Shown: positions 18,500-32,456 of the stretch, piece after piece | Position numbering within the stretch: position 1 is the first letter of the stretch | Layout: each line of letters opens with the position of its first letter | Virus record (IMG/VR): IMGVR_UViG_3300037755_001389 | Coordinates: 1 to 40,644 of that record | Source: a virus | Lineage: Duplodnaviria; Caudoviricetes | DNA length: 40,644 nt | Strand: one strand, 5' to 3' | The notes under the pieces: generated by a model | The model's database searches: none | Told to the model about the DNA's origin: nothing | The model's input: the letters and a program-made list of their open reading frames with translations, nothing else | Translations under genes and position numbers: made by a program

Positions 18500-19607
18500 G
18501 CCCAGTGTTCTCGATCAACCGATTGACCTGAGCCTTTTGGACGAAGAGGAGGTCTCCGGCTACGCGGGGCAGAGCGACGCCGTGCCGCAAGAGGTCGCGC
18601 GGATGCAACCGATTCTCGACGTGGTCGGGTACTCGGTGTCGGAACAGCGTGCCCGCGACGACGTGCGGCGTGAGCGCGGGCGGCTTGCCCAGCGATGGAA
18701 GCAGGCCGACGAACCGCCCGCCCCGGAATCGTTGGTCTCGTTGCAGGATTTTGTGCGCAAGCACATGCCGAAAATGCAACAGGAGGAGTTCATTCCGCCA
18801 GCCCAGTGGGAGTTCATCCAGGATCAGTACAAGAACTACGTGGCCCGCACCCAGTACCGCAACGAAATGGCCATGGCGCGGTACAAGGCGACTCCGTCCC
18901 CCCTGCGGGAAACCCAGCGGGACGCGCTGGAGCAGCTTCTCAGCGAATCCGGTGGCGACCCAACGAAGGCGCTCGATCGGTTCGAACGGCTCGGTGTCGT
19001 TCGCTCCCGCGGAACCAGCAAGGAGGCGTGGGACGCGGAGCTGCGAAAGGCCGCCCTGGCGGCCGCCGGCGGTGACCCGGTTGAGGCCAACCAACTGATG
19101 AAGCGTGGGAAACCGGATCCCGGCGGCGACACCCAAAAATGGGATCCGGCCGACAAGGCGGCCTACGACGAGATGATGGGCAAGGGCATGAGCGCCACGG
19201 CGGCGCGAGAGGCTCTCAATACAAAACCCGGCGATGACCGCGGAATCATTACGTCCGGTTCTCTCTCCGAGACGTTGGGCGGCAGCACCGTGATGGGCGA
19301 GCGGCTGCCCGGTTTGCTGGAGCGAGCCCGCCCCGGTGGTGCCAACCGTTTGCTCGCCTACGCCGAACTCAAACAATGGTCGAACGCGAACCTGGGACTG
19401 CTCTCGAAAAAAGAGGCCGCCCGCGTCAAACAGGAACTTGCTCGCGTGAAGATCACCACGGAGGAAGCCGCGGAACTCGACCGAGCGGGCGCGTTCACGA
19501 CCCCGGAGATGCTGAAGTTTCTGGAGGTTGAGCCCACGAAGTGGTTCGGCGACGAGGATCGAACCAGACAAGCGGCGATCAAGGCGTATTTCAAACGCGT
19601 CCAATAG
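18489..19607 (+). CDS. putative internal virion protein
   Basis: GGGAG RBS then ATG at 18489; helical and charged; precedes the giant gene. Confidence 0.6.
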   Translation: MPTKPSVLDQPIDLSLLDEEEVSGYAGQSDAVPQEVARMQPILDVVGYSVSEQRARDDVRRERGRLAQRWKQADEPPAPESLVSLQDFVRKHMPKMQQEEFIPPAQWEFIQDQYKNYVARTQYRNEMAMARYKATPSPLRETQRDALEQLLSESGGDPTKALDRFERLGVVRSRGTSKEAWDAELRKAALAAAGGDPVEANQLMKRGKPDPGGDTQKWDPADKAAYDEMMGKGMSATAAREALNTKPGDDRGIITSGSLSETLGGSTVMGERLPGLLERARPGGANRLLAYAELKQWSNANLGLLSKKEAARVKQELARVKITTEEAAELDRAGAFTTPEMLKFLEVEPTKWFGDEDRTRQAAIKAYFKRVQ

Positions 19608-19609
19608 CC

Positions 19610-22600
19610 ATGCCGGATAAATACGACGCCTTGGTCGATTCCATCCTGTCGAGCAAGTCTGAGACGGATGGCGGCGACGACGAGAACTACGACGCGTTGG
19701 TCGCGGAACTCCTGGGGAACCATTCAGCATCTGACAATGACCCCGCCGGCGACGACGAGAACTACGACGCCCTCGTTTCGGAACTTCTGGGAGAAAGGGG
19801 CGGCGCTCGTAACACCCCGACCACGGAGCCACCCCCCTTTTCGTACCAGCCGTCATGGCCAGCCGGTTCCTACCCCGAGAGCGGCGAATCCGTGGACCCG
19901 CCACCCGTCAGGCCTCGCGTCACGTTCTCGGAGTCGCCGCTGGATCGCATGGAGACGCTCACCGAGCAGCGGGCCCGCGAATCCGTAGACCGGCGGTGGA
20001 TGGCCCAGGAGGAATTACGCAACCGGTCGCAATTGAGAGCCGCCCGCACGGAGATCGAACACAGCCCCCCCGAGCTGATGCCCGACGGTACGGAGCGCGC
20101 CCCGGCCAGAATGGGCGTCAACACGATTCTGCAAGAGCCGGATCCGGGGAACGTCGAGATCCTGCGTGCGATGCGTGAGGATTGGTTCCAGCGCGTCGAG
20201 TTAAGGAGGCAGCAGGAAGAACTCGAAATCCAGAAAAAAAAAGGGGGAACCTACGACTATGGTCCGGGCGGTATGGAAATGCGTGCCGCCCCGCCCAAGA
20301 CATCGACGAGCCTGTGGGATCAGTTGGCGGCGGGGGTTCGGTATCGCGCCCAACTCTACCCGTACGCCGCGTGGCGGAAAATCAGTGGCGTGGACGAGCT
20401 GATCGACGCGGCGGTGGAAACGGAAACCGAGTTTCGGATCGAGCACGGGATCTACTCTCAGAATCAGCGTAGCCACCGGCGCTATCTCGAAGACGACGTG
20501 CGGCGCGAGTTGCTTGCGGGCGAACCGATGGTGTCGCCCGACGGGGCGGAAAAACAGGGCTACGTGATTGCGACGCTCTCCGCGCTCGATCCGGAGATCG
20601 TTCCCGAGGCGAAGGGCATCTACCAGAAAATGGCCCGCTTCGGCGGGGAGTTGGCTCCGTTCATCGCGGAGCTGGCCGTCACGAAAAAGGCGATCCGCCC
20701 GCTGACCCGCCCGATCACGAATCGAATGGTTCGACCGAAGCCGACCACGCCGGGGTTGGCTGCGCGCGGGGGTGGAACGGCGGCCGGGTCGGTCGACATG
20801 GCCGAGCTGCGGGCGGGTCTGCGTGCCGGGCACGCGGCGGAAGATCTGGCGGCGGTGGGCACAATCGCCGCGGCACAGGGCGAAGATCCGCTTTTGGCGG
20901 CGGGGATGTTTGGTCCGATCGCCGCGACCGGGCTGGCGGCGACGCCGGCCGGGCGGTACGCGGCCCAAACGGCGGTTTTCTCCGGACTCGCGGCGACGCA
21001 CGGCGACAAAGACGACGTGCTCATCGAGGGATTTTTCGGACCGCTCGTATTCAGTTCGAAATACGTTGCGGCCTGGGCCGCTCGTCGATACCGAGCCGCC
21101 GGGTTGCGGGAGGCCATGCCCGAGGGCAGCCCCGTCCGCAGGGCCATGGACCGCTGGGAGGAGATGGGACGCGAGGGAAAGAGCGGCTCCGACCCGGAGG
21201 TCACGGCGATGGCCAGATACATCCACGACATCGCCATGGACGTGTACGACCCCGCCACGTCCAAAAAGTATAACTACGCGGAGCGGAAGGCGGTCAAAAG
21301 TTGGCTTGAGGATCATCGGATCGAGCGCGTCTACGACCTGGACACGGAAACGCTAACAGAGCATGTCACGAAACCCGGCGAGAAGGCGCCCTGGAAGACA
21401 GGCGACGTCATTGACGTGGAGGCCACCGCAGTTCCCGGGGCGAAAGAGCGCCCCCGACCACCGGAATCTACCATACCCACCCAAGCCGCTAAGGGAAAAC
21501 CCGCACCATCCGTGAAACAGGATCCGGCAGCCCCCCGGAAACCGGGGCCGAAGGTCTCTCCCTCGTACATGACGCCACAAGAGGCCGCTATGGAGGCTCA
21601 GAGGCCCGTAGGCGGTCCCGGTGCGACCAAACCCCCATCGACTCCGTTGAAGCCGCCAGGGCCTTCTGCGCAAGGCGATGCGGCCCCTGCGACCACGCCC
21701 ACGCAGACCCCTACGGGGAAACCCGTAACCGTTGAGTCGGGGGCCATGCAGTTTGGTCCAACCGATGATCCGGCGCACGGCGAGACCGTGCGCAAGATTC
21801 CCGTCGGGAAGCTCATCCGGGAGACAGCCAATTTTGAGGGGATGATCCCAGAAAACGCCGCCGACTTCGTCGAGGAGGTCGAGAACCTATTCCGAGAGCT
21901 TGGTGCCCAGCCTGACCGTCACAATCTCGCGCATCTGAATCGCGGCGAGCTGACGGCCATGAAATCCATCGCCGAACGGTACAAGATGCGTCGCACGAGA
22001 GGCAGCCTCTTGGGACGGATTTCGGACGAGCTGAGTTATCGCGGCGGTACGTCGCAGGGGCAGGCGTCACCGCCGACAGCGCCGTCTACGGAAGGTGCTG
22101 CGACGGGACGCGAGGAAGCCGCGATCAAGCCCGGTTCCCCCGAAGCCGCGGGCTTACAAAACGCGCGGCAATCCGTGAACGCCGCGTGGATCGACGACCA
22201 GCTCGCGTTGAACAAGCTCGTCACTGTGGACGTGGACAGTACGACGGGCGAGCAGACCCCGATTGTGGCGTTTCCGAATACGCCCGATGGGGTCGAGCGG
22301 GCGACGCTTTTCGTCGTGGAAAACAACGAGCGTCGTGCCGATGGCAAGCAATATCGTTTGCTACGCCCGGGAGACAGCGGGGCGGTCGCACCGAATTCCC
22401 TCCCCGAAACCCCGCCAGCGCCTGAAGAACCAGGTATAATTGAAGAAGGTGAACCGCATGTCGAAACGCCAGTTCAAGAGCCCGAAGGAAGTGAAGGAGG
22501 ATCTGGAAAACGACCCGACGGCGTGGGTCAACGGGATGCCCCCGAAGACACTCCCGACGGAGGAGTTGGCGAAGGCGGCGTTGGGCTTCAGCGCCCAACA

Positions 22601-25600
22601 GTGCCTTCAATGGCTCAAGGAGGAGCGTCCGGGTCTGTACGCGGCGAAGAAGGAGGCGGGCGACCTTTACCGGGGTCTGTACCAGGACCAGGAACTGGCG
22701 CGAGCGGAACTGGGCCGATTGTCGGAGGAGGGGGTTCCGTTTCTGGAGGCGCGGGAGCTGGCCCTGAACAGCTACCTGTTCAACTACCCGGACCCCCCGG
22801 AGGAGGAGCAGGGGGAGGGGTACGAGGACCAGGGCACGAACGCGGTGGAACTGGAGGACGAATACGAGGAGGAGCAGAGCCCGCCGCGTCCGAACGACGA
22901 AAACCCGCCGGCGGTGAGCCCGCGGGCGACGAGCCTCGACCCGGCGCCAGCGGAACCAGCGACTACATCATTCCCGTCGAAAGCGCCGCCGAACTTTTCG
23001 GGGGCAGCAAACGACAACGCATCATCCGAAACATAGAGGCGATCAAAGTTCTGCAAAGCCTTGCCGCGGAGCATCGACCGGCCACCGCCGGCGAGAAACG
23101 CATTCTCGCCGGATTCACGGGTTGGGGCGCGCTCTCGGAGGTGTTTGAGGTTCGCTGGAAGTACGAGGAACTGAACGACCTGAAAGATGAGCTAAGTGCT
23201 CTCTTGGAGGGCAGCCCGGCCAGCGCCGAGGGCTCACCGGGTTCATCATGGGCAGAGGCCCGTCGCTCGACGACCAACGCTTTCTACACTCCCCCCGAGA
23301 TCATTCGCGGCGTTTACGACGTGCTGAACCAGATGGGGTTCCGGTCCGGCAAAGTTCTGGAACCGTCCATGGGCGTCGGGCATTTCTACGGATTCATGCC
23401 GCCGGCATTGATGGCCAGAACCCAGCGGTTCGGCGTGGAGCGCGACGCGATCAGCGGCGCCGTCGCCGCGGCGATCTACAGCAACAGTAAAATCTTCGTC
23501 AAAGGTTTCGAGCAAGCGCCTCTGCCCGGCGGGTATTTCGACGTGGCCGTCGGGAACGTGCCGTTTGGCAACATTCCCGTCGTCGATCATCGGTATCCGC
23601 GCGAGGTGACGCGCAGGGTCCACGATTACTTTTTCATGCGAACCGTCGATCTGCTACGGCCGGGCGGCGTGCTCGCCTTCATCACGTCGCACGGCACGAT
23701 GGACAAGGTGGACTCGTCGATGCGACGTCGCCTGCACCGGGACGCGGCGTTTCTGGGAGCGATCCGGTTTAACCGGGAGTCGTTGCCGGGCACGAAGGTC
23801 ATCGCGGACCTTATTTTTCTTCAGAAGCGCCGGTCGGGCGCCGCGGTGGCGGTCGAGCACGAGTGGCTGGAATCGCCCGCCCTCGAATCGCTCGGGCCGA
23901 GCAAAGCGACCGGCCGCCCGTATTACGTCAACGAGTATTTTCAGACGCACCCCGAGATGGTCATTGGCCGGCACGCCGCCCCGCCCTCAGGCGGACTGCG
24001 CGGGGGATTCGAGTACACGGTAGAGCCGGGCGAGGCCTCGGCGGACGCCTTCGCGCAGGCGATTGAACTTCTCTCCGAACGTCTGGCCGGTAGCTACCTG
24101 GCACAAGTGGGCCCGCAACAGCCCACCACCATACCCGAGGCCGACTTCATTCCGTCGCCGGACGATCTACCGGGCGGGGCTCTGTTCCAAAAAGGCGGCC
24201 GGATTTACGCATCTGGTGGGACGGGGAAAACCGCCGAAATCGCCGACGTGAAGATCCTCAAAAGTAAGGGGTCCGGTCCGGCGCTGCGCAAGGTTCGGTC
24301 GGTGCTGGAAATCCGTGACACGCTTCTGTTGCTGTACCGCGCTTCGCGTGAACGCGACAACGACGCGGAGCTGTTGCGATTGCAGAAGCAACTCAACGAG
24401 GTATACGACGGCTTTGCCAGGCGAGAGCGAACCAGCCACGCGGGGCAGCAGGTTCCGGGGTCACTACATCATCGGTCCATCCTTACGTTGTTCGAGGACG
24501 ACCCCTACACGCTCCCGATCGTCCAGGCGATCGAGGACTACGACCAAACCACAAAGATCGCCTCCAAGGGCCCGGTTTTCAAGAGGCGCGTCGTGCCCCT
24601 CAAGCCCGAGGAGCGCGTTGCGACGGATCCGGCCGACGCGCTGGCAATAACGATCGACGAGCGAGGCTGGCCCGACATCGAGCGGGTGGCGGAAATTCTA
24701 GGCAGCCCGCCCGCGGAAACGCTGCGTGCGATGATTGAACGCGGCCTTGTTTTCGAGTCGCCGTCCGGCGAACCGGTCACGTCCGATGAGTACCTGTCCG
24801 GGAATGTGCGGCAAAAACTTCGGGACGCGGAAGCCGCGGCCGAACATGAGCCCGAGCGGTTCGCCCCAAACGTCGAGGCGTTGCGTGCGATTCAGCCGGA
24901 AGATTTTCCGCCGTCGCGGATTTTCCCGAAACTCGGGGCGCCGTGGATTCTGCCGGCGACGATGGGCGAGTTTGCGGAGCACCTGCTGGGCCAGGCGCGA
25001 ACCGTAACGTACGCCGCCGGAAAGTGGGCGGTGGGCCGCGAGGCGGGACATCGCGTATCGTTCGGAACCACCGTCGCCGGCTCGCGGCGATGGGGCACGG
25101 AGAATTACGACGCCGGGAAGATTCTGGAGGATGGGCTGAATCTGAGGCACCCCGTGGTAAAGGTCGGCTCGGGGGATGATCGCGTCGTCGACGCGCAGCA
25201 AACCATCGAGGCGAAGGGGAAATTGGAGGAAATTCAAGAGGAATTTACTCGCTGGTTGTGGTCGGATGCGACTCGCAGCGAGTTCTACGCCCGCAAGTTC
25301 AACGACGAGCACAACAACACGGTCAAGCGCCATTGGCGCGCGCCGAAACAGATGAGCCTTCCCGGTCTGTCGAGCGACATCACGCCGTTTTCCTATCAAA
25401 TGGACGGGGCGTACCGCGGCATTCACGGAACCGAGCCGCTCCTACTCGATACCGGAGTGGGTGGCGGAAAAACGCTCACCATGGCGATGATCGCGGAGGG
25501 CGTGATGCGGCTTGGCATCGCCCGCAAAGTTTTCCTGGCGGTCCAGAACAGCACCTTGTCGCAGATCGTCTCCAATATTCGCGGCTACTACCCCGGAATG

Positions 25601-28600
25601 CCGGTCACGGGCTTAACGTCACGGGACGTCAAGGCCGAGAACATTCAGCGATCCATGGCTCGCATCGCCGCGGCGGAGCGCGGGTTGTTTGTCGTGCCTC
25701 ATTCGGTGCTGCCGGCGATTCCGCTCGGCGAAGCGACGCTGACCGAATGGTACACCCGCGAACTGGATCAGATGCGATCGCACCTGGCCCTGTTGCACGA
25801 AACACGCGGCACCAAGGCGTCCATCAAGCAGATGGAGACTCGCATTGAAACGCTCAGCGTGCGGTTGCGCCAGAAAATTGACGCCGTTCGTCGGTCCAAG
25901 GTTTTGACGTGGGAGGAGATCGGCGCCGACTGGCTGATGTACGACGAGAGCCAGGGCATCAAGAACCTTCAGTATTCGACGACCATGGTGGACGTGGCGG
26001 GGATGGGCAACCCGGGCGGCTCGGCCAGGGCGCTGGATGCGTTCATCAAGGGCGGCTATGTGCTGAAACAGCAGGGGGGGCGGGGGGTCTTGTGGGCCAC
26101 CGGCACACCGTTGTCCAATTCGATGAGCGAGCTGTACACGCTATTTCGGAACCTGGCTCCGCGCAAGTTCGAATTGCTGGGCATGAACCACTTTGACGAC
26201 TTCGCCCGCATGTTCGTCCTGCCGACCGAAAAGTTCGAGCCCGCACCGGCCGGTGGTGGCTACAAAAAACGGACACGCTTGACCGACTGGGTCAACGTGA
26301 ATCCGTTGTTGACGATGTACCACGACATCGCGCATCGCACGCCGGCGGAAGAAGTGGCGCGGGTGCGGAGGGAACGGGGGGCGGCGCAAGAGGTGCCGCT
26401 TGTCGCCCGGAATTCGGACGGGGATCGAGAGTACGAGGTCGTCGCGCTGCCGGAAAACGAAGTTCACGCGATGTTCATCGCGGAGGCGGCGTTTCGGACG
26501 CGAGCCGTGCGGGGTTCGCCGCCCGAGGAGGGCGCTGACAATGTGATGGTGATTATCAAGGACGAGCAGTTGGCCGCGATCGACGTTCGGTTGCTCGACA
26601 GCCCAAAACGCCGGTTCGTCTCCGACGCGATCAAGGCCAAGGCACGCGGCTTCGTCGATCCCGCGGGGAAGCTTTCGACGCTCGCCAAGATGATCGTGGA
26701 ACGGTGGCGGCGCGACGGATCGGTGACGCTGGAACGAGGTGGTGACCGCCACGAAGGTGGTCTCGTGCAGGCGGTGTTCATCAATCTGGGCACGCCCGCG
26801 CAGGGCACGCCAGCGCAGGGCACCAACGCGCTGGACGTCTACGGCGTTCTCATCAACGACCTAGTCGCCGCCGGCATTCCGCGGGACCAAATCGCCACGA
26901 TTTACGACGCGGACCATGCCAACCCGGAGAGAGCGAACGACCTGAAGCAAAAGCTTTTCGCGCGAGTGAATAGCGGACAGGTGCGGGTGTTCATGGGGTC
27001 CATCGAAAAAATGGGCGTTGGCGTCAACATCCAACGATTGCTGCGCACGAGCTATCAGCTCGATCCGACGTATCGCCCGAGTGATCTGACCCAGATGGAC
27101 GGGCGAAGCATCCGCGGCGGCAATCTCAACGCCGAGGTCGAGATGTTCCGTTTCGTTACCGAGAACAGTTCCGACGAATTCATGTACTCGCTCATATCGA
27201 AAAAAGCGCGATCGTTCAACAATTTTCTCAACGCCGAGTTGGGCGAGGTGGACGAATTCACCGACACCGACGACGAAGCCCGGGCGTTCGAGATGGCCAT
27301 GGCCAAAGCGTCGGGCAACCCGCTGATGCTAGAACTGAACAGCGCCGAGGAGACACTTCGCAACCTGCGCGTTCGGGAAGCGGCCCATCGCCGCGGGCAG
27401 GATGACGTGCGCTTGCGGGCGAGCGAGAATCTGCGAAAGCAATCCGTCAACCAAAAGCTCATCGCCCTGTGGCAGGCGATCGACACGCAAATTTATGCTC
27501 CGGCGAAGGGCGTGACCCCGCGCACGTGCGTCGTCGACGGCGCCACGTTCACCGAACCGGGGAAGGCCGGCGCCGCGATCATTGCGAAGGTGGGGTCCGG
27601 CCACGGTACGTTTAACGTTGGCACCCCCTATGTCTCCGTGGGCACGATCAATGGCGTTCCGTTCAGCGGGCGGGCGTTCGAGTATCACGAGGTAGGCGGC
27701 GGCGGTGGGGACAAAGTCCAAATCCAACTCACCCCGGACCAGCGCACGATTCACCGGATTACAGAGGCGGCCGGTCTGCACGAGGCGATGGGCGAGGTGG
27801 CGGAAATTGTGTTGAGGGATCGCTCGGTCAGCCCGCAGAGCGCCGCGGCCCTGGCGAACAAGGTTTTCGCGTTGCTGGACCAGCCGCTGGTCGAGATCGA
27901 CCGCGCGTCGCGGAACCTCACTTTTCTGGAGAAGGAGGGGGCGGCGGCGAAGGAGCTTCTGGAGACTCCCTTCACGAGAGACAAAGAGTTGGCGGCCGCC
28001 AAGCTGGCGGTGGCTGACATCCAGGAAAAACTCGCCGCGCTCGCGGCACCGGCGGTGGGCGGGGGCGGTGAGCCGAGCGACATGCCACCTGGTTTCGTTG
28101 AGGCGCATCGTCCGGAGCGTATGCAGCAGCGGAATCTCACGGCGGATCAGCACGCCTGGTTACGCGAACACGGACCGGACAAGCCGGCGTTCGGTATGGG
28201 CGGGCTGTTTTCCGTGCCGGACCTGCGCGGGGTGTGGCAGAGGCATTGGGACGATATCGCCGAGCGATTGCAAAACCTGCCACCCGGGCTGGGGAAGCGG
28301 GTCATGGACGCGGTCGGGACCGGCGTGTGGGGCGGGCGATGGGGGCTCGAAGAGGATACCTGGCGGGCCTTCGAACGGGTGAAGGGGACGAGCGGGTTGG
28401 CTCGGGATACCGCGGCGCGAATTTCGGAAGCGTTCGATGATCGCGTCAAGGCGCTCACGTCGGCGTTCGGCGGCACACCGGAAGTCCGTGCCAGCGCCAA
28501 CCGAGATCTTGAGGACGCCATTCGGGGCAAGCTAGATCCAGCCAGGCTGGATCCCGCGATCCGACGTGTCTATGAGGCCTACGTGACGGAGGTCAATGCG

Positions 28601-30766
28601 CTGACCGACGAGCTGCTCGCCAAACCGCACCTTCATCCGTACATGCAGGCGTTCGGCCTGAGCAACATCGTCGAGATGATCGCGCTGCGTCGCACCAAAC
28701 CGGGCGCCTACCTGCGGCGACTGTACGAACATTTCGAGCAGATGCGTGGCTACCGCACGCCCGAAGGGAACATGGTTCGTAACATCGGACCGCGAATCCG
28801 CGGTGGGATGTTCAAGCACAAGCGGTCCGACGACGAGTTGTGGACGGTGCAGGTGGCGCCGGGGCGATTCAAACAATTCGCCGATCGCAACGACGCCCAG
28901 GCGCTTTGGGAAGAACTCATCAAGGCAAACGAAAAAAAGTACGGAGAGAGCGTCTACGATCGGTTCAAGATCATCGACCCGTTGGGAGAGGATGCGACCG
29001 AGCACCTGCCGCAGGTGACGGACGTTCGGGTGCTGATGGCCGAATCGCTCGTCCAGTTGGCCAGCAACATGCAAACGCTGGAGCTGTTCTATGCGATCGC
29101 CAACACGGTGGCGAAGACCGGCGAGGACATGGTTGGTCTACTCGGCGACGAGGCGGAAGGGCTCGACGAGGCGGAAGCGGCGCCCGAGGCGGACGATCCC
29201 GACATGCTCGCCATGACGGCGGCCGAGATGGTTGATGCGGTCGGCGGCGACCTGCGGCGAGCCATGGGCGCCCGCCTCCGGGAACGTGCCGAGAGCCTGG
29301 GATACGTGCCGCTCTCGGACACGATCACGCTGGGGCCGCTGGCGGGCATGTTCGTTCCCAAGCCCGTCGCCGACAACATCATGGAGGTGGCTCGCGTTAA
29401 AAGCGGCGTTCTGCACGAGCTGTACGCCGGCTACATGTATGCGTTCAAGTCCTCGAAAGTGCTGTACAACTTGCCGACGTGGATGCGCAACGCGGAGGGG
29501 ATGCTTTTCCTGTGGGCCCTGGACGGGCTGAGCACCACGAAATGGCTGCCGGCGGCGGCGAGCCACATGCGAGAGCGTAGTTCGCAGTGGAAATCTCTGG
29601 TGAAGGAGCATGAGCTGCTCGTCTCGTGGCAGCGGGAGGATTTGCAGACGCTGGAGGAAATGCTGGCCGGGAACAAGACGCTCGCGGCGCTCACCAAGTT
29701 TGGCGCACATCTCGTCGCCGCGAACCGGAAAATCGGCGACTGGTACAATTTTCTGGACGAGGCGTCGAAGATGGCGTCGTACCTGCGAAACACCACGCCC
29801 GTGAGCGGGGGCGGTCGCGGGATGAGCCACGACGAGGCCCTGCAACACCTCTGGATGTACACCAATTACGGGCGCCTGGGGGGCTGGGCGGCGAAGCTGA
29901 AACGGGAGTGGTACGGTGCCCCGTTCGTGTCGTTCACTGACAACCTCATTAAGATCAATCTGCGTGCGTCGCGGAATCGGCCCGGGCGGCTGTTTGCCCT
30001 GTGGGCCCTGCCCGGGCTGCTGTCGATGGCGGCTCGGATCATTCTCGGCATCGACGACGAGGAGGAGGAGTTATTGAACCAATCGCTCAATCGCATTGGG
30101 CGAGGGGTTACCGGACCGTGGAACGCGGCGATCGACCGGTATTTTCAGCCGATCGTCCCCTGGCGGGATCGGCACGGGCGGCTTCAGACGCTCGACCTGC
30201 GATGGACGTTCCCGCTGGCGAACGATTTTCGGGTTCAGACGGGTCCGGGCGGCATCGGGATTCCGTTTGTTTTTGCCATGCCCCACGTGTCCGCGGCCCT
30301 TGAGCTGCGATACAACGTGGACGAGTGGACCGGGAAACCCATCTACGCGGACTGGAAAACGGACGGCGAAAATCTGGCAGGCATCCTCGCGCACGTCTGG
30401 CGTAGCACGGTACCGCTGCCGACAATCTTGACGTCCGGCGTGGAAAGATTGTATAAGTCGGCTACTGGACAGAGCGGGCAACCCCTGGTAAGTGTTGTCG
30501 TCAAGGAGCTGCTCGGCATCAGCATTCGCTCTCCGCGAATCACGCGCGAGGACGCGTTTAAGCTCGCCAAGAAAAAATACGGAGAGGCGGGTGTGCGGGC
30601 GATGGAGGCGACGTTGCGGTATTACAACGACAAGTACCGGGCGGGCTGGGACAAGAAGATAAGGGCGGGCGGCGTTGTGTCCGGTGCGCTCCGTTCGGCC
30701 CGGAACACCGAGCGCCGTGAGCGGCGCCGTGGAACGGACGCCGGACGTCCCGCCTGGATGGATTGA
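19610..30766 (+). CDS. giant polyvalent virion protein with DarB-like N6-adenine DNA methyltransferase (~22960-23830), SF2/SNF2-like helicase (~25380-27250) and helical LPD-type C-terminus
   Basis: AFYTP, VLEPSMGVGHF, GNVPFG, HDYFF, GGVLAFITS; Walker A GVGGGKT (~25453), DESQ (25943-25954), ATGTP, motif VI QMDGRSIRGGN; ATG 2 nt after the upstream stop. Confidence 0.9.
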   Translation: MPDKYDALVDSILSSKSETDGGDDENYDALVAELLGNHSASDNDPAGDDENYDALVSELLGERGGARNTPTTEPPPFSYQPSWPAGSYPESGESVDPPPVRPRVTFSESPLDRMETLTEQRARESVDRRWMAQEELRNRSQLRAARTEIEHSPPELMPDGTERAPARMGVNTILQEPDPGNVEILRAMREDWFQRVELRRQQEELEIQKKKGGTYDYGPGGMEMRAAPPKTSTSLWDQLAAGVRYRAQLYPYAAWRKISGVDELIDAAVETETEFRIEHGIYSQNQRSHRRYLEDDVRRELLAGEPMVSPDGAEKQGYVIATLSALDPEIVPEAKGIYQKMARFGGELAPFIAELAVTKKAIRPLTRPITNRMVRPKPTTPGLAARGGGTAAGSVDMAELRAGLRAGHAAEDLAAVGTIAAAQGEDPLLAAGMFGPIAATGLAATPAGRYAAQTAVFSGLAATHGDKDDVLIEGFFGPLVFSSKYVAAWAARRYRAAGLREAMPEGSPVRRAMDRWEEMGREGKSGSDPEVTAMARYIHDIAMDVYDPATSKKYNYAERKAVKSWLEDHRIERVYDLDTETLTEHVTKPGEKAPWKTGDVIDVEATAVPGAKERPRPPESTIPTQAAKGKPAPSVKQDPAAPRKPGPKVSPSYMTPQEAAMEAQRPVGGPGATKPPSTPLKPPGPSAQGDAAPATTPTQTPTGKPVTVESGAMQFGPTDDPAHGETVRKIPVGKLIRETANFEGMIPENAADFVEEVENLFRELGAQPDRHNLAHLNRGELTAMKSIAERYKMRRTRGSLLGRISDELSYRGGTSQGQASPPTAPSTEGAATGREEAAIKPGSPEAAGLQNARQSVNAAWIDDQLALNKLVTVDVDSTTGEQTPIVAFPNTPDGVERATLFVVENNERRADGKQYRLLRPGDSGAVAPNSLPETPPAPEEPGIIEEGEPHVETPVQEPEGSEGGSGKRPDGVGQRDAPEDTPDGGVGEGGVGLQRPTVPSMAQGGASGSVRGEEGGGRPLPGSVPGPGTGASGTGPIVGGGGSVSGGAGAGPEQLPVQLPGPPGGGAGGGVRGPGHERGGTGGRIRGGAEPAASERRKPAGGEPAGDEPRPGASGTSDYIIPVESAAELFGGSKRQRIIRNIEAIKVLQSLAAEHRPATAGEKRILAGFTGWGALSEVFEVRWKYEELNDLKDELSALLEGSPASAEGSPGSSWAEARRSTTNAFYTPPEIIRGVYDVLNQMGFRSGKVLEPSMGVGHFYGFMPPALMARTQRFGVERDAISGAVAAAIYSNSKIFVKGFEQAPLPGGYFDVAVGNVPFGNIPVVDHRYPREVTRRVHDYFFMRTVDLLRPGGVLAFITSHGTMDKVDSSMRRRLHRDAAFLGAIRFNRESLPGTKVIADLIFLQKRRSGAAVAVEHEWLESPALESLGPSKATGRPYYVNEYFQTHPEMVIGRHAAPPSGGLRGGFEYTVEPGEASADAFAQAIELLSERLAGSYLAQVGPQQPTTIPEADFIPSPDDLPGGALFQKGGRIYASGGTGKTAEIADVKILKSKGSGPALRKVRSVLEIRDTLLLLYRASRERDNDAELLRLQKQLNEVYDGFARRERTSHAGQQVPGSLHHRSILTLFEDDPYTLPIVQAIEDYDQTTKIASKGPVFKRRVVPLKPEERVATDPADALAITIDERGWPDIERVAEILGSPPAETLRAMIERGLVFESPSGEPVTSDEYLSGNVRQKLRDAEAAAEHEPERFAPNVEALRAIQPEDFPPSRIFPKLGAPWILPATMGEFAEHLLGQARTVTYAAGKWAVGREAGHRVSFGTTVAGSRRWGTENYDAGKILEDGLNLRHPVVKVGSGDDRVVDAQQTIEAKGKLEEIQEEFTRWLWSDATRSEFYARKFNDEHNNTVKRHWRAPKQMSLPGLSSDITPFSYQMDGAYRGIHGTEPLLLDTGVGGGKTLTMAMIAEGVMRLGIARKVFLAVQNSTLSQIVSNIRGYYPGMPVTGLTSRDVKAENIQRSMARIAAAERGLFVVPHSVLPAIPLGEATLTEWYTRELDQMRSHLALLHETRGTKASIKQMETRIETLSVRLRQKIDAVRRSKVLTWEEIGADWLMYDESQGIKNLQYSTTMVDVAGMGNPGGSARALDAFIKGGYVLKQQGGRGVLWATGTPLSNSMSELYTLFRNLAPRKFELLGMNHFDDFARMFVLPTEKFEPAPAGGGYKKRTRLTDWVNVNPLLTMYHDIAHRTPAEEVARVRRERGAAQEVPLVARNSDGDREYEVVALPENEVHAMFIAEAAFRTRAVRGSPPEEGADNVMVIIKDEQLAAIDVRLLDSPKRRFVSDAIKAKARGFVDPAGKLSTLAKMIVERWRRDGSVTLERGGDRHEGGLVQAVFINLGTPAQGTPAQGTNALDVYGVLINDLVAAGIPRDQIATIYDADHANPERANDLKQKLFARVNSGQVRVFMGSIEKMGVGVNIQRLLRTSYQLDPTYRPSDLTQMDGRSIRGGNLNAEVEMFRFVTENSSDEFMYSLISKKARSFNNFLNAELGEVDEFTDTDDEARAFEMAMAKASGNPLMLELNSAEETLRNLRVREAAHRRGQDDVRLRASENLRKQSVNQKLIALWQAIDTQIYAPAKGVTPRTCVVDGATFTEPGKAGAAIIAKVGSGHGTFNVGTPYVSVGTINGVPFSGRAFEYHEVGGGGGDKVQIQLTPDQRTIHRITEAAGLHEAMGEVAEIVLRDRSVSPQSAAALANKVFALLDQPLVEIDRASRNLTFLEKEGAAAKELLETPFTRDKELAAAKLAVADIQEKLAALAAPAVGGGGEPSDMPPGFVEAHRPERMQQRNLTADQHAWLREHGPDKPAFGMGGLFSVPDLRGVWQRHWDDIAERLQNLPPGLGKRVMDAVGTGVWGGRWGLEEDTWRAFERVKGTSGLARDTAARISEAFDDRVKALTSAFGGTPEVRASANRDLEDAIRGKLDPARLDPAIRRVYEAYVTEVNALTDELLAKPHLHPYMQAFGLSNIVEMIALRRTKPGAYLRRLYEHFEQMRGYRTPEGNMVRNIGPRIRGGMFKHKRSDDELWTVQVAPGRFKQFADRNDAQALWEELIKANEKKYGESVYDRFKIIDPLGEDATEHLPQVTDVRVLMAESLVQLASNMQTLELFYAIANTVAKTGEDMVGLLGDEAEGLDEAEAAPEADDPDMLAMTAAEMVDAVGGDLRRAMGARLRERAESLGYVPLSDTITLGPLAGMFVPKPVADNIMEVARVKSGVLHELYAGYMYAFKSSKVLYNLPTWMRNAEGMLFLWALDGLSTTKWLPAAASHMRERSSQWKSLVKEHELLVSWQREDLQTLEEMLAGNKTLAALTKFGAHLVAANRKIGDWYNFLDEASKMASYLRNTTPVSGGGRGMSHDEALQHLWMYTNYGRLGGWAAKLKREWYGAPFVSFTDNLIKINLRASRNRPGRLFALWALPGLLSMAARIILGIDDEEEELLNQSLNRIGRGVTGPWNAAIDRYFQPIVPWRDRHGRLQTLDLRWTFPLANDFRVQTGPGGIGIPFVFAMPHVSAALELRYNVDEWTGKPIYADWKTDGENLAGILAHVWRSTVPLPTILTSGVERLYKSATGQSGQPLVSVVVKELLGISIRSPRITREDAFKLAKKKYGEAGVRAMEATLRYYNDKYRAGWDKKIRAGGVVSGALRSARNTERRERRRGTDAGRPAWMD
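19672..19792 (+). repeat. 75-bp-period coding repeat GDDENYDALV(A/S)ELLG x2, plus a degenerate N-terminal copy
   Basis: GGCGACGACGAGAACTACGACGC occurs twice. Confidence 0.85.
22435..22452 (+). promoter_or_regulatory. intragenic -10 box and Shine-Dalgarno for the nested gene
   Basis: TATAAT at 22435-22440; AGGTGA at 22447-22452, 5 nt before ATG 22458; no clear -35. Confidence 0.55.
22458..23036 (+). CDS. nested (+1 frame) protein with TnpV-like helical core and acidic tail
   Basis: own RBS and -10; WLKEERPGLY..KKEAGDL...ARAELGRL..GV...EARELALNSYL; GC3-rich codons in this frame while the host frame turns Gly/Pro low-complexity. Confidence 0.75.
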   Translation: MSKRQFKSPKEVKEDLENDPTAWVNGMPPKTLPTEELAKAALGFSAQQCLQWLKEERPGLYAAKKEAGDLYRGLYQDQELARAELGRLSEEGVPFLEARELALNSYLFNYPDPPEEEQGEGYEDQGTNAVELEDEYEEEQSPPRPNDENPPAVSPRATSLDPAPAEPATTSFPSKAPPNFSGAANDNASSET

Positions 30767-31925: not shown

Positions 31926-32456
31926 ATGACTGAGCAGGAACAGACACAGGCCGCCGGCGGCGCGATGTTGAGCGAATCCGACATCGACCGGGTGGCGGAA
32001 ATTTGTCATGAGGCGAACTTTGCAGTGTGCAGGGTTCAAGGGGAGTATCCGCCTCCGGTCCATTGGGATGCGGCGGCGGCGGACTGGCAGCGTGGCTCGG
32101 CGCGTGCCGCTGTGCGATATTACATGGAACACGCCCCGATGACCGCGGACGAGATGCACGAACAATGGATGCGACACAAACTAGAAGATGGATGGCGGTT
32201 CGGGCGCGTCAAGGATGAGAAAAAAAAAGAGCACCCATGCCTGCTGCCACGCTGTTATCTGCCGCCGGAACAGAGGCTGAAGGATGACATTTTCGTGGCA
32301 ATCTGCGAGGCGTATCGGGCCGCGCAGGTAGAGCACACAGCCACGTCTGACCCGAATGCGGACGAGGCAGCACCACTTCTCGGCGTTCCACACGACGTGT
32401 TAGCCGGGTCAATGCAACGTAATAAGATATTATCGGACGTCAAAACGGCGGATTAA
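31926..32456 (+). CDS. RyR-domain protein
   Basis: HEQWMRHKLEDGWRFGRVKDEKKKEHPCLLP..LPPEQRLKD matches the ryanodine-receptor RyR repeat consensus. Confidence 0.85.
   Translation: MTEQEQTQAAGGAMLSESDIDRVAEICHEANFAVCRVQGEYPPPVHWDAAAADWQRGSARAAVRYYMEHAPMTADEMHEQWMRHKLEDGWRFGRVKDEKKKEHPCLLPRCYLPPEQRLKDDIFVAICEAYRAAQVEHTATSDPNADEAAPLLGVPHDVLAGSMQRNKILSDVKTAD

Follow-up and report, generated by a model that had tools for sequence, protein, structure and literature searches.

Evidence for a widely conserved TnpV-like gene embedded in giant DarB-like methylase-helicase genes

Why a giant gene of a tailed virus should contain a second, much smaller open reading frame (ORF) with the look of a gene in its own right is the question raised by the 40,644-base virus record IMGVR_UViG_3300037755_001389 (Caudoviricetes), which is rated 91% complete, occurs in sediment metagenomes, and is called the window below. 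A sequence-only reading of its DarB-like giant gene had described a TnpV-like gene, with its own promoter and ribosome-binding site, lying inside the linker ahead of the methylase, and the elements that it named were all found: TATAAT at 22435-22440, AGGTGA at 22447-22452, ATG at 22458, and a 192-aa ORF in the +1 frame, inside the giant gene. The nested gene is almost certainly real. By sequence comparison it is widely conserved in its embedded position, and by sequence profile its product is a distant relative of TnpV, below the Pfam cut-off. The nested gene and its surroundings comprise the following features.

22458..23036, + strand: TnpV-like gene of 192 aa, nested in the +1 frame of the giant gene; stop codon at 23034-23036
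22457..23038, + strand: Gly-rich linker of the giant frame (aa 973-1166), read across the nested gene
22412..22417, + strand: weak and doubtful -35-like hexamer CCGCCA, a 3/6 match, 17 nt before the -10 box
22435..22440, + strand: perfect -10 box TATAAT of the internal promoter predicted for the nested gene; the sole TATAAT in the window
22445..22452, + strand: Shine-Dalgarno (SD) sequence GAAGGTGA, 5 nt ahead of the nested ATG; SD-led starts are typical of the relatives
22548..22787, + strand: folded core (aa 31-110) of the nested protein, with five helices, AlphaFold2 confidence (pLDDT) >90
22803..22907, + strand: acidic segment of the nested protein (aa 116-150), predicted to be disordered
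22908..23033, + strand: Pro/Ala/Ser-rich tail of the nested protein (aa 151-192), unconserved, likely a neutral extension

The two frames differ sharply in codon usage, as the earlier reading had noticed. Over the nested core, the third-position GC content (GC3) of the giant frame is 0.36-0.50, compared with a mean of 0.78 (minimum 0.50) elsewhere in the gene, while the nested frame has a normal coding pattern (GC1/2/3 of 0.68/0.39/0.85). The length of the ORF is uninformative by itself, the probability of the +1 frame staying open given the protein of the giant being 0.53. A second long +1 ORF in the giant gene (194 aa, 20772-21356) shows no GC3 dip and has the look of a shadow frame; it serves as an internal negative example.

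The relatives used here were gathered through the methylase because direct searches with the nested protein were nearly blank. The nested core found no homolog at E<=0.001 among 104 candidates, only two weak matches among the representatives (one a repeat protein), no locus among the viral contigs, and nothing better than E ~5 among the phages; a single-sequence methylase scan of the viral contigs also returned no match. The final collection held 166 loci, from 6 phage records, 80 viral contigs and 80 genome contigs. A match to the nested protein was present in 139 of them and absent from 27, of which 12 had less than 3 kb of sequence upstream. Nesting in the +1 frame with the giant frame open was found at 135/166 loci, a count that includes the seeds and the loci used to iterate the profile; the remaining matches were two in the +1 frame with the giant frame broken, two upstream in frame with the methylase, and four downstream. 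At four loci (L026, L027, L029 and L044) an extra TnpV copy stands beyond the methylase region, 3.8-5.7 kb downstream of its start, in addition to the nested one. Among 80 held-out metagenome loci, which are mostly gut Firmicutes-like and redundant, there were 73 upstream matches, 69 of them nested, so that the scan upstream of the methylase in other DarB-like genes, which had been proposed as a check, came out as predicted. Seven plasmid loci gave two nested matches and two further +1 ORFs that were recognised by eye and lie under the threshold. A correlation between the small and large proteins (Mantel r 0.81) reflects shared descent and was not used.

It had also been predicted that annotation would miss such a gene. 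In five of the six phage records, a +1 ORF lies directly upstream of the methylase and is unannotated in all five; the annotated Bcep22-like or related phage records examined contain the nested ORF in 5/5 cases and list it in none. At two loci (L262:2190-2495 and L267:2157-2462) the annotation gives the small ORF separately and starts the giant gene after it. These two, together with L116, L117, L120 and L121, are proteobacterial and acidobacterial elements in which the nested gene follows the opening of the giant frame by only tens of codons; here the giant frame encodes a QLSLF/QLSFDF-like peptide, which we take to resemble a sliding-clamp-binding motif. The strict form of this pattern occurs before the nested gene in 11/134 loci, after it in 8/134, and is absent from the window. 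No paper on the nesting was found in a literature search with limited coverage of subscription journals. The main text of PMC5512222 mentions neither TnpV nor the overlap, and PMC10782964 and PMC5704250, in the portions relevant here, list TnpV, DUF1896 or snf2 insertions without linking them.

Selection was measured on relatives, as the ratio of nonsynonymous to synonymous change (dN/dS) over 37 disjoint pairs of 55-97% identity, 13 of them near-type and 24 far-type. The nested frame gave 0.24 (near-type) and 0.18 (far-type), and the giant frame over the same overlap 1.66 and 1.82; in the methylase, used as a control, the values were 0.09 in frame and 1.71 off frame. This frame-specific comparison had been suggested as a check on the nested gene, and it turned out in its favour: the nested frame in the relatives is under purifying selection, while the giant frame across the overlap is shadow-like in amino-acid terms and is kept only free of stop codons. 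In the window, the expectation for the giant frame over the overlap is 5.5 stops, and none is seen (P=0.001). Openness of the giant frame is significant at P<0.05 in 90/101 representatives, all 101 of which have stops in the third frame. Since the representatives were picked as open, the unbiased figure is that of the upstream +1 matches, in 135/137 of which the giant frame is open, with a median chance probability of about 0, which upholds the earlier claim that the giant protein reads through the small gene. An unavoidable stop would arise in 0/100 representatives in the observed frame and in 86/100 in the other frame. The observed frame alone, then, can always be kept free of stops, and this explains the constant +1 phase without the need for a single origin.

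The direction of overprinting was probably the reverse of that first proposed. The small gene had been described as overprinted on the linker; however, the nested frame is constrained (dN/dS ~0.2) and has free-standing relatives and an un-nested counterpart, DUF1896 (below), while the outer frame is a neutral, Gly-rich linker. It was probably the linker that was laid over an older small gene as the enzyme gene extended upstream.

The profiles used to score the nested ORF did not contain the window sequence. With a profile of five seeds, the nested ORF of the window already ranked first, with an E-value of 0.39 that is not significant; after one iteration over the other loci it was matched at E 1.6e-7 among 475 window segments, the next best having 1.2. 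Against the near-type profile the value was 1.8e-7 (next best window segment, over both scans, 1.2-1.3) and against the far-type (classical) profile 6e-4, and the nested core agrees with 11 of the 15 majority-conserved columns of the relatives. Its only Pfam match is TnpV (PF14198), at E 0.028 and 14.8-15.2 bits, under the gathering cut-off of 27; Pfam TnpV is matched at E<=0.01 by 57 of 85 aligned relatives, the window's protein not being among them. The resemblance to TnpV, noted in the sequence-only reading, is therefore upheld by transitive profiles and falls short by the Pfam score. No family match was found in PHROG, NCBIfam or PADLOC, nor any solved homolog by sequence profile. A search of the ESM Atlas yielded leads only, with a best score of 0.87 and one cluster with TnpV at a 26% share (score 0.81).

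Outside the core, a very acidic tail had been noted. This holds for residues 116-150, with 14 Asp or Glu and one Lys or Arg, and not for residues 151-192, which are rich in Pro, Ala, Ser and Thr and where the nested codon pattern is gone; the tail is unconserved. DNA mimicry by the acidic tail, an early suggestion, is not supported and is no trait of the family. The tail is peculiar to this phage: of 135 such proteins the window's is the longest, the relatives ending near residue 115 with a median net charge of -4.

AlphaFold2 models the nested protein as five helices over residues 35-106 (pLDDT >90) with low-confidence ends, and the core modelled alone has a mean pLDDT of 91.7 and a predicted template modelling score (pTM) of 0.78. 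Modelled together with giant residues 1145-1935, helicase lobes excluded, the nested core (aa 22-121) scored 0.16 against a mark of 0.32, which speaks neither for nor against binding. In all four structure searches of the Protein Data Bank (PDB), the top match was 2apl (PG0816, a member of DUF1896, PF08989), with Z-scores of 7.2 (root-mean-square deviation 2.0 over 61 aligned residues) and 6.6, and a Foldseek E-value of 1.6-1.8. By itself, this likeness of a model may reflect only a common helical arrangement. The near-type family aligned with DUF1896 weakly in hhalign (probability 35, E 4e-4), and the nested protein did not match Pfam DUF1896 at E<=0.1. A scan with a short methylase motif returned 10 loci, four of them chance matches and six with the methylase (two of these identical over the stretch compared). 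All six methylase loci, which are presumably Bacteroidetes elements, carry a gene of ~150 aa directly upstream that overlaps the methylase start and is un-nested. The three such genes that were scanned were all DUF1896 above the cut-off, and one of the ~150-aa proteins is homologous to 2apl when compared with PDB sequences (E 8e-21). A DUF1896 search of 81 genomes around that of locus L156 gave 0/81 above the cut-off, in a sample that is uninformative. Taken together, the fold rank, the alignment and the identical position make it likely that the TnpV-like nested protein and DUF1896 share ancestry.

The enzyme encoded around and after the nested gene is laid out as follows.

19541..30766, + strand: giant DarB-like gene, 3741 aa, with a variable N-terminal part, linker, LPD36-methyltransferase, SWI2/SNF2 helicase and C-terminal region
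23003..23860, + strand: LPD36 and adenine methyltransferase, with GWGA, EPSMG and NVPF at giant residues 1194, 1274 and 1339
25385..27340, + strand: SWI2/SNF2-type helicase (bounds approximate), with GGGKT, DESQ and QMDGRSIR at giant residues 1974, 2135 and 2518

The giant ORF matches PHROG 10089 (DarB-like antirestriction) with E=0 over aa 1130-2836. Judged by the motif definitions taken from the relevant part of PMC5512222, it has the LPD36 GxGU and TP motifs (GWGA, YTP), methylase motifs I and IV (EPSMG and NVPF, a variant of NPPF), and the Walker A, Walker B and motif VI elements of a SWI2/SNF2 helicase. The gene sits within a terminase/portal/capsid morphogenesis block. The genes of the window include a terminase, a P22-like portal and an SU10-type capsid, the morphogenesis genes being on the + strand; among the 29 window ORFs scanned, no integrase or replication gene was recognised. 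The nested ORF had been said to end just inside the methyltransferase region; more exactly, it terminates within the first helix of LPD36, a domain that precedes the methylase core. Near the N-terminus of the giant protein (19610-19790) there are three imperfect (D)xYDALVxxLL repeats, a candidate capsid-targeting or binding repeat. Two to three ORFs downstream of the giant gene, a 176-aa RyR-domain protein is encoded at 31926-32456 (Pfam E 5.7e-10; PHROG 5154, E 1e-30).

An internal promoter for the nested gene is predicted and plausible. TATAAT is expected 1.35 times on average by chance in the window, so that its position alone is notable. Boxes of -10 type (>=5/6 matches) lie 12-65 nt upstream of the nested start in 11/41 near-type and 30/58 far-type representatives, against 3.8 and 8.2 expected, and matches to the -35 hexamer average 3.7-3.8 in nested relatives compared with 2.4-2.5 in controls, which backs the promoter proposed earlier. 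In the window the -10 box is unusually near the start, at 17 nt compared with mostly 30-50 in the relatives, and a consensus promoter scan called no plus-strand promoter at the nested gene. Among the sequencing runs listed as containing the window, none is an RNA library. The further idea that this promoter yields a stand-alone methylase-helicase did not hold up, as an SD-led in-frame start beyond the nested gene is absent from the window and from 62/62 near-type relatives.

Given the gene context, our tentative proposal, at somewhat less than an even chance, is that the nested protein is a binding inhibitor or chaperone of the methylase-helicase; in its specific form, which could quite possibly be wrong, the TnpV-like helical product would bind the enzyme and hold it in check. 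This is favoured because the gene is fixed to the enzyme across delivery systems and is seemingly expressible independently. The ancestral unit would have been a promoter, the small gene and then the methylase-helicase, a layout still seen with DUF1896. An upstream extension of the enzyme gene across the small gene, in the sole frame that can always be kept free of stops, would then have added an N-terminal targeting part and produced a Gly-rich linker. The packaging signal in the N-terminus of P1 DarB and the virion-associated giant of phage JC1 suggest a reason for keeping the giant frame open. Two sources would supply the small protein, its own sigma-70-type promoter and internal initiation on the mRNA of the giant gene, and such dual expression would ensure its presence whenever the enzyme is made. 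In the producing cell this protein might hold the enzyme in an inert or soluble state; after delivery, and with the incoming DNA already protected, it might shut the enzyme off. A broader and doubtful extension would make TnpV and DUF1896 a single ancient family, the dedicated off-switch of DarB-type methylase-SNF2 enzymes, usually locked inside the enzyme gene, with the stand-alone TnpV proteins of parasitic mobilisable elements as stolen inhibitors directed against the enzyme of a helper element. Mobilisable elements of Streptococcus suis that use the snf2 gene of conjugative elements as their insertion site have a TnpV of their own, as reported in PMC9815147, and this hints at conflict over the methylase-helicase.

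Several observations weigh against this account. The window's nested protein has at most 31% identity to its relatives and no close one, and selection on it is read from the family, having been measured on those relatives. Its promoter has a -35 match of only 3/6 and no TG extension, and would leave a leader of ~11 nt. The link to DUF1896 is weak by each single test. TnpV occurs alone, without the enzyme, in mobilisable elements, according to the relevant parts of PMC3158075 and PMC9815147. Three of the seven plasmid loci show no nested gene, and the profiles found none near P1 darB, from which it follows that the enzyme is not always dependent on it.

Equally tight linkage and co-expression would be expected of a positive cofactor, such as a folding chaperone or a loader that brings the enzyme to the capsid interior, the conjugation channel or the incoming DNA. 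In P1, Ulx aids DarB incorporation. DarB itself is packaged via an N-terminal signal within a six-protein system (PMC9024508, in part), and PMC9144972 places the giant of JC1 among the virion proteins; both agree with such a role. However, Ulx and the darB-ulx region gave no profile match, a packaging factor would need no sigma-70-type promoter of its own, and the gene has been retained by phages as well as by conjugative elements, whose ways of delivering proteins presumably differ; a cofactor is thus unlikely, in our judgement. It is also doubtful that the small protein has a role unconnected with the enzyme, say in early host takeover, anti-defence, or the regulation of recombination or transcription, and stays nested solely because moving its gene would break the giant gene. 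Its predicted promoter would fit, as would the stand-alone TnpV of Tn4451-type and other mobilisable elements, for which an Xis-like role has been postulated (PMC3158075, with PMC9815147, as far as the portions used here go). On the other hand, the model is all-helical and lacks an Xis-like wing, no recombinase was found among the 29 ORFs scanned (a part of the window's ORFs), and the un-nested DUF1896 version still adjoins the methylase.

Two simpler explanations question the arrangement itself. The small domain could be part of the giant protein through programmed frameshifting, or the record could contain compensating indels, as the sequence-only reading had allowed for; we find both very improbable. 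In-frame joins do exist in a few records (L117, L154, PBC5 gp22, and P0123-P0126), but they make up only 2/139 upstream matches, L117 is one base off from three relatives, and a strong SD and ATG stand at the nested start. Contigs of three other runs (X2-X4) span 22157-22563 and 22615-23142 in overlapping pieces and cross both entry and exit; the indels listed for 22000-23400 are all in-frame (6, 6 and 3 bases), with none of 1 or 2 nt, which indicates that the nested arrangement is not an assembly artefact. Among the matches listed, 22564-22614 is covered by X1 alone, possibly the source run, and the runs may share one campaign. Five substitutions in or near the nested gene, all in low-depth contigs, are too few to weigh: by hand inspection, those at 22496 and 22508 alter the giant and leave the nested protein unchanged, 22497 alters both, 22705 alters the nested protein and is silent in the giant, and 22446 extends the SD match. 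It is barely credible that the ORF arose by chance, as a shadow frame in a GC-rich gene. Its openness on length alone (P=0.53), the sub-threshold Pfam score and the absence of direct homologs in the candidate search could be read in that way, and the idea is contradicted by the codon phase shift, the profile match, the fold, the positional conservation and the selection on the frame.

In-frame fusions were also considered as a Rosetta-stone argument for a functional link and were rejected; P0123-P0126 look like frameshifted N-termini of giants. The top BFVD match of the nested protein, Q8W6J4_2, is presumably from phage PBC5. In PBC5 (L169:16949-32697) the giant was deposited as two coding sequences, the upstream one (gp22) ending in the TnpV frame, and the methylase frame is open across that end, which suggests a frameshift in the record or the isolate.

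The presence of a small gene in this position has consequences beyond the window. DarB-type methylase-helicases have a wide distribution that takes in phages, integrative conjugative elements and plasmids, and both their mechanism and their control are poorly known; a conserved, hidden partner gene provides a direct handle on them, and may be needed to express, control or switch off the enzymes. The proposal would point to a role for TnpV and DUF1896, two families whose function is not known, and the locus provides a cross-phylum case of a long overlap with a neutral outer frame. In practice, deletions or frameshifts in the giant gene affect two proteins, and proteomics of virions or infected cells against standard annotation is blind to the small one. 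If the off-switch reading were true, a frameshift that kills the inhibitor would also kill the enzyme.

The precise relationship of this locus to known systems can be stated for each of its parts. The giant shares the LPD36-methylase-SWI2/SNF2 architecture and the setting in a virion gene block with DarB of P1, the methylase-SNF2 dyad of polyvalent proteins (as set out in the main text of PMC5512222) and the Bcep22-type giants, except that P1 darB, unlike the giant gene of the window, has no nested gene. The nested protein, by transitive profile comparison, has the helical core of TnpV (PF14198) of Tn4451/Tn4453-type elements, without the Firmicutes N-terminal segment and one helix pair and with a long tail added; its gene lies inside a methylase-helicase gene, whereas that of TnpV adjoins a serine recombinase, and the Xis role postulated for TnpV does not fit its all-helical, wingless model. 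The DUF1896 gene has the same place, directly before LPD36-methylase, but overlaps only the methylase start and is un-nested, and its protein has an extra C-terminal half. As an embedded pair, with the inner coding sequence wholly within the outer one on the same strand, in another frame, and with both frames kept open by selection, the arrangement resembles Rz1 in Rz, for which a functional linkage is presumed, as here (PMC9144972, in part). Unlike that pair, the inner gene here is seemingly the older and the constrained one and the outer frame a neutral linker, and the combination of nested gene and giant spans phages, integrative elements and plasmids of several phyla.

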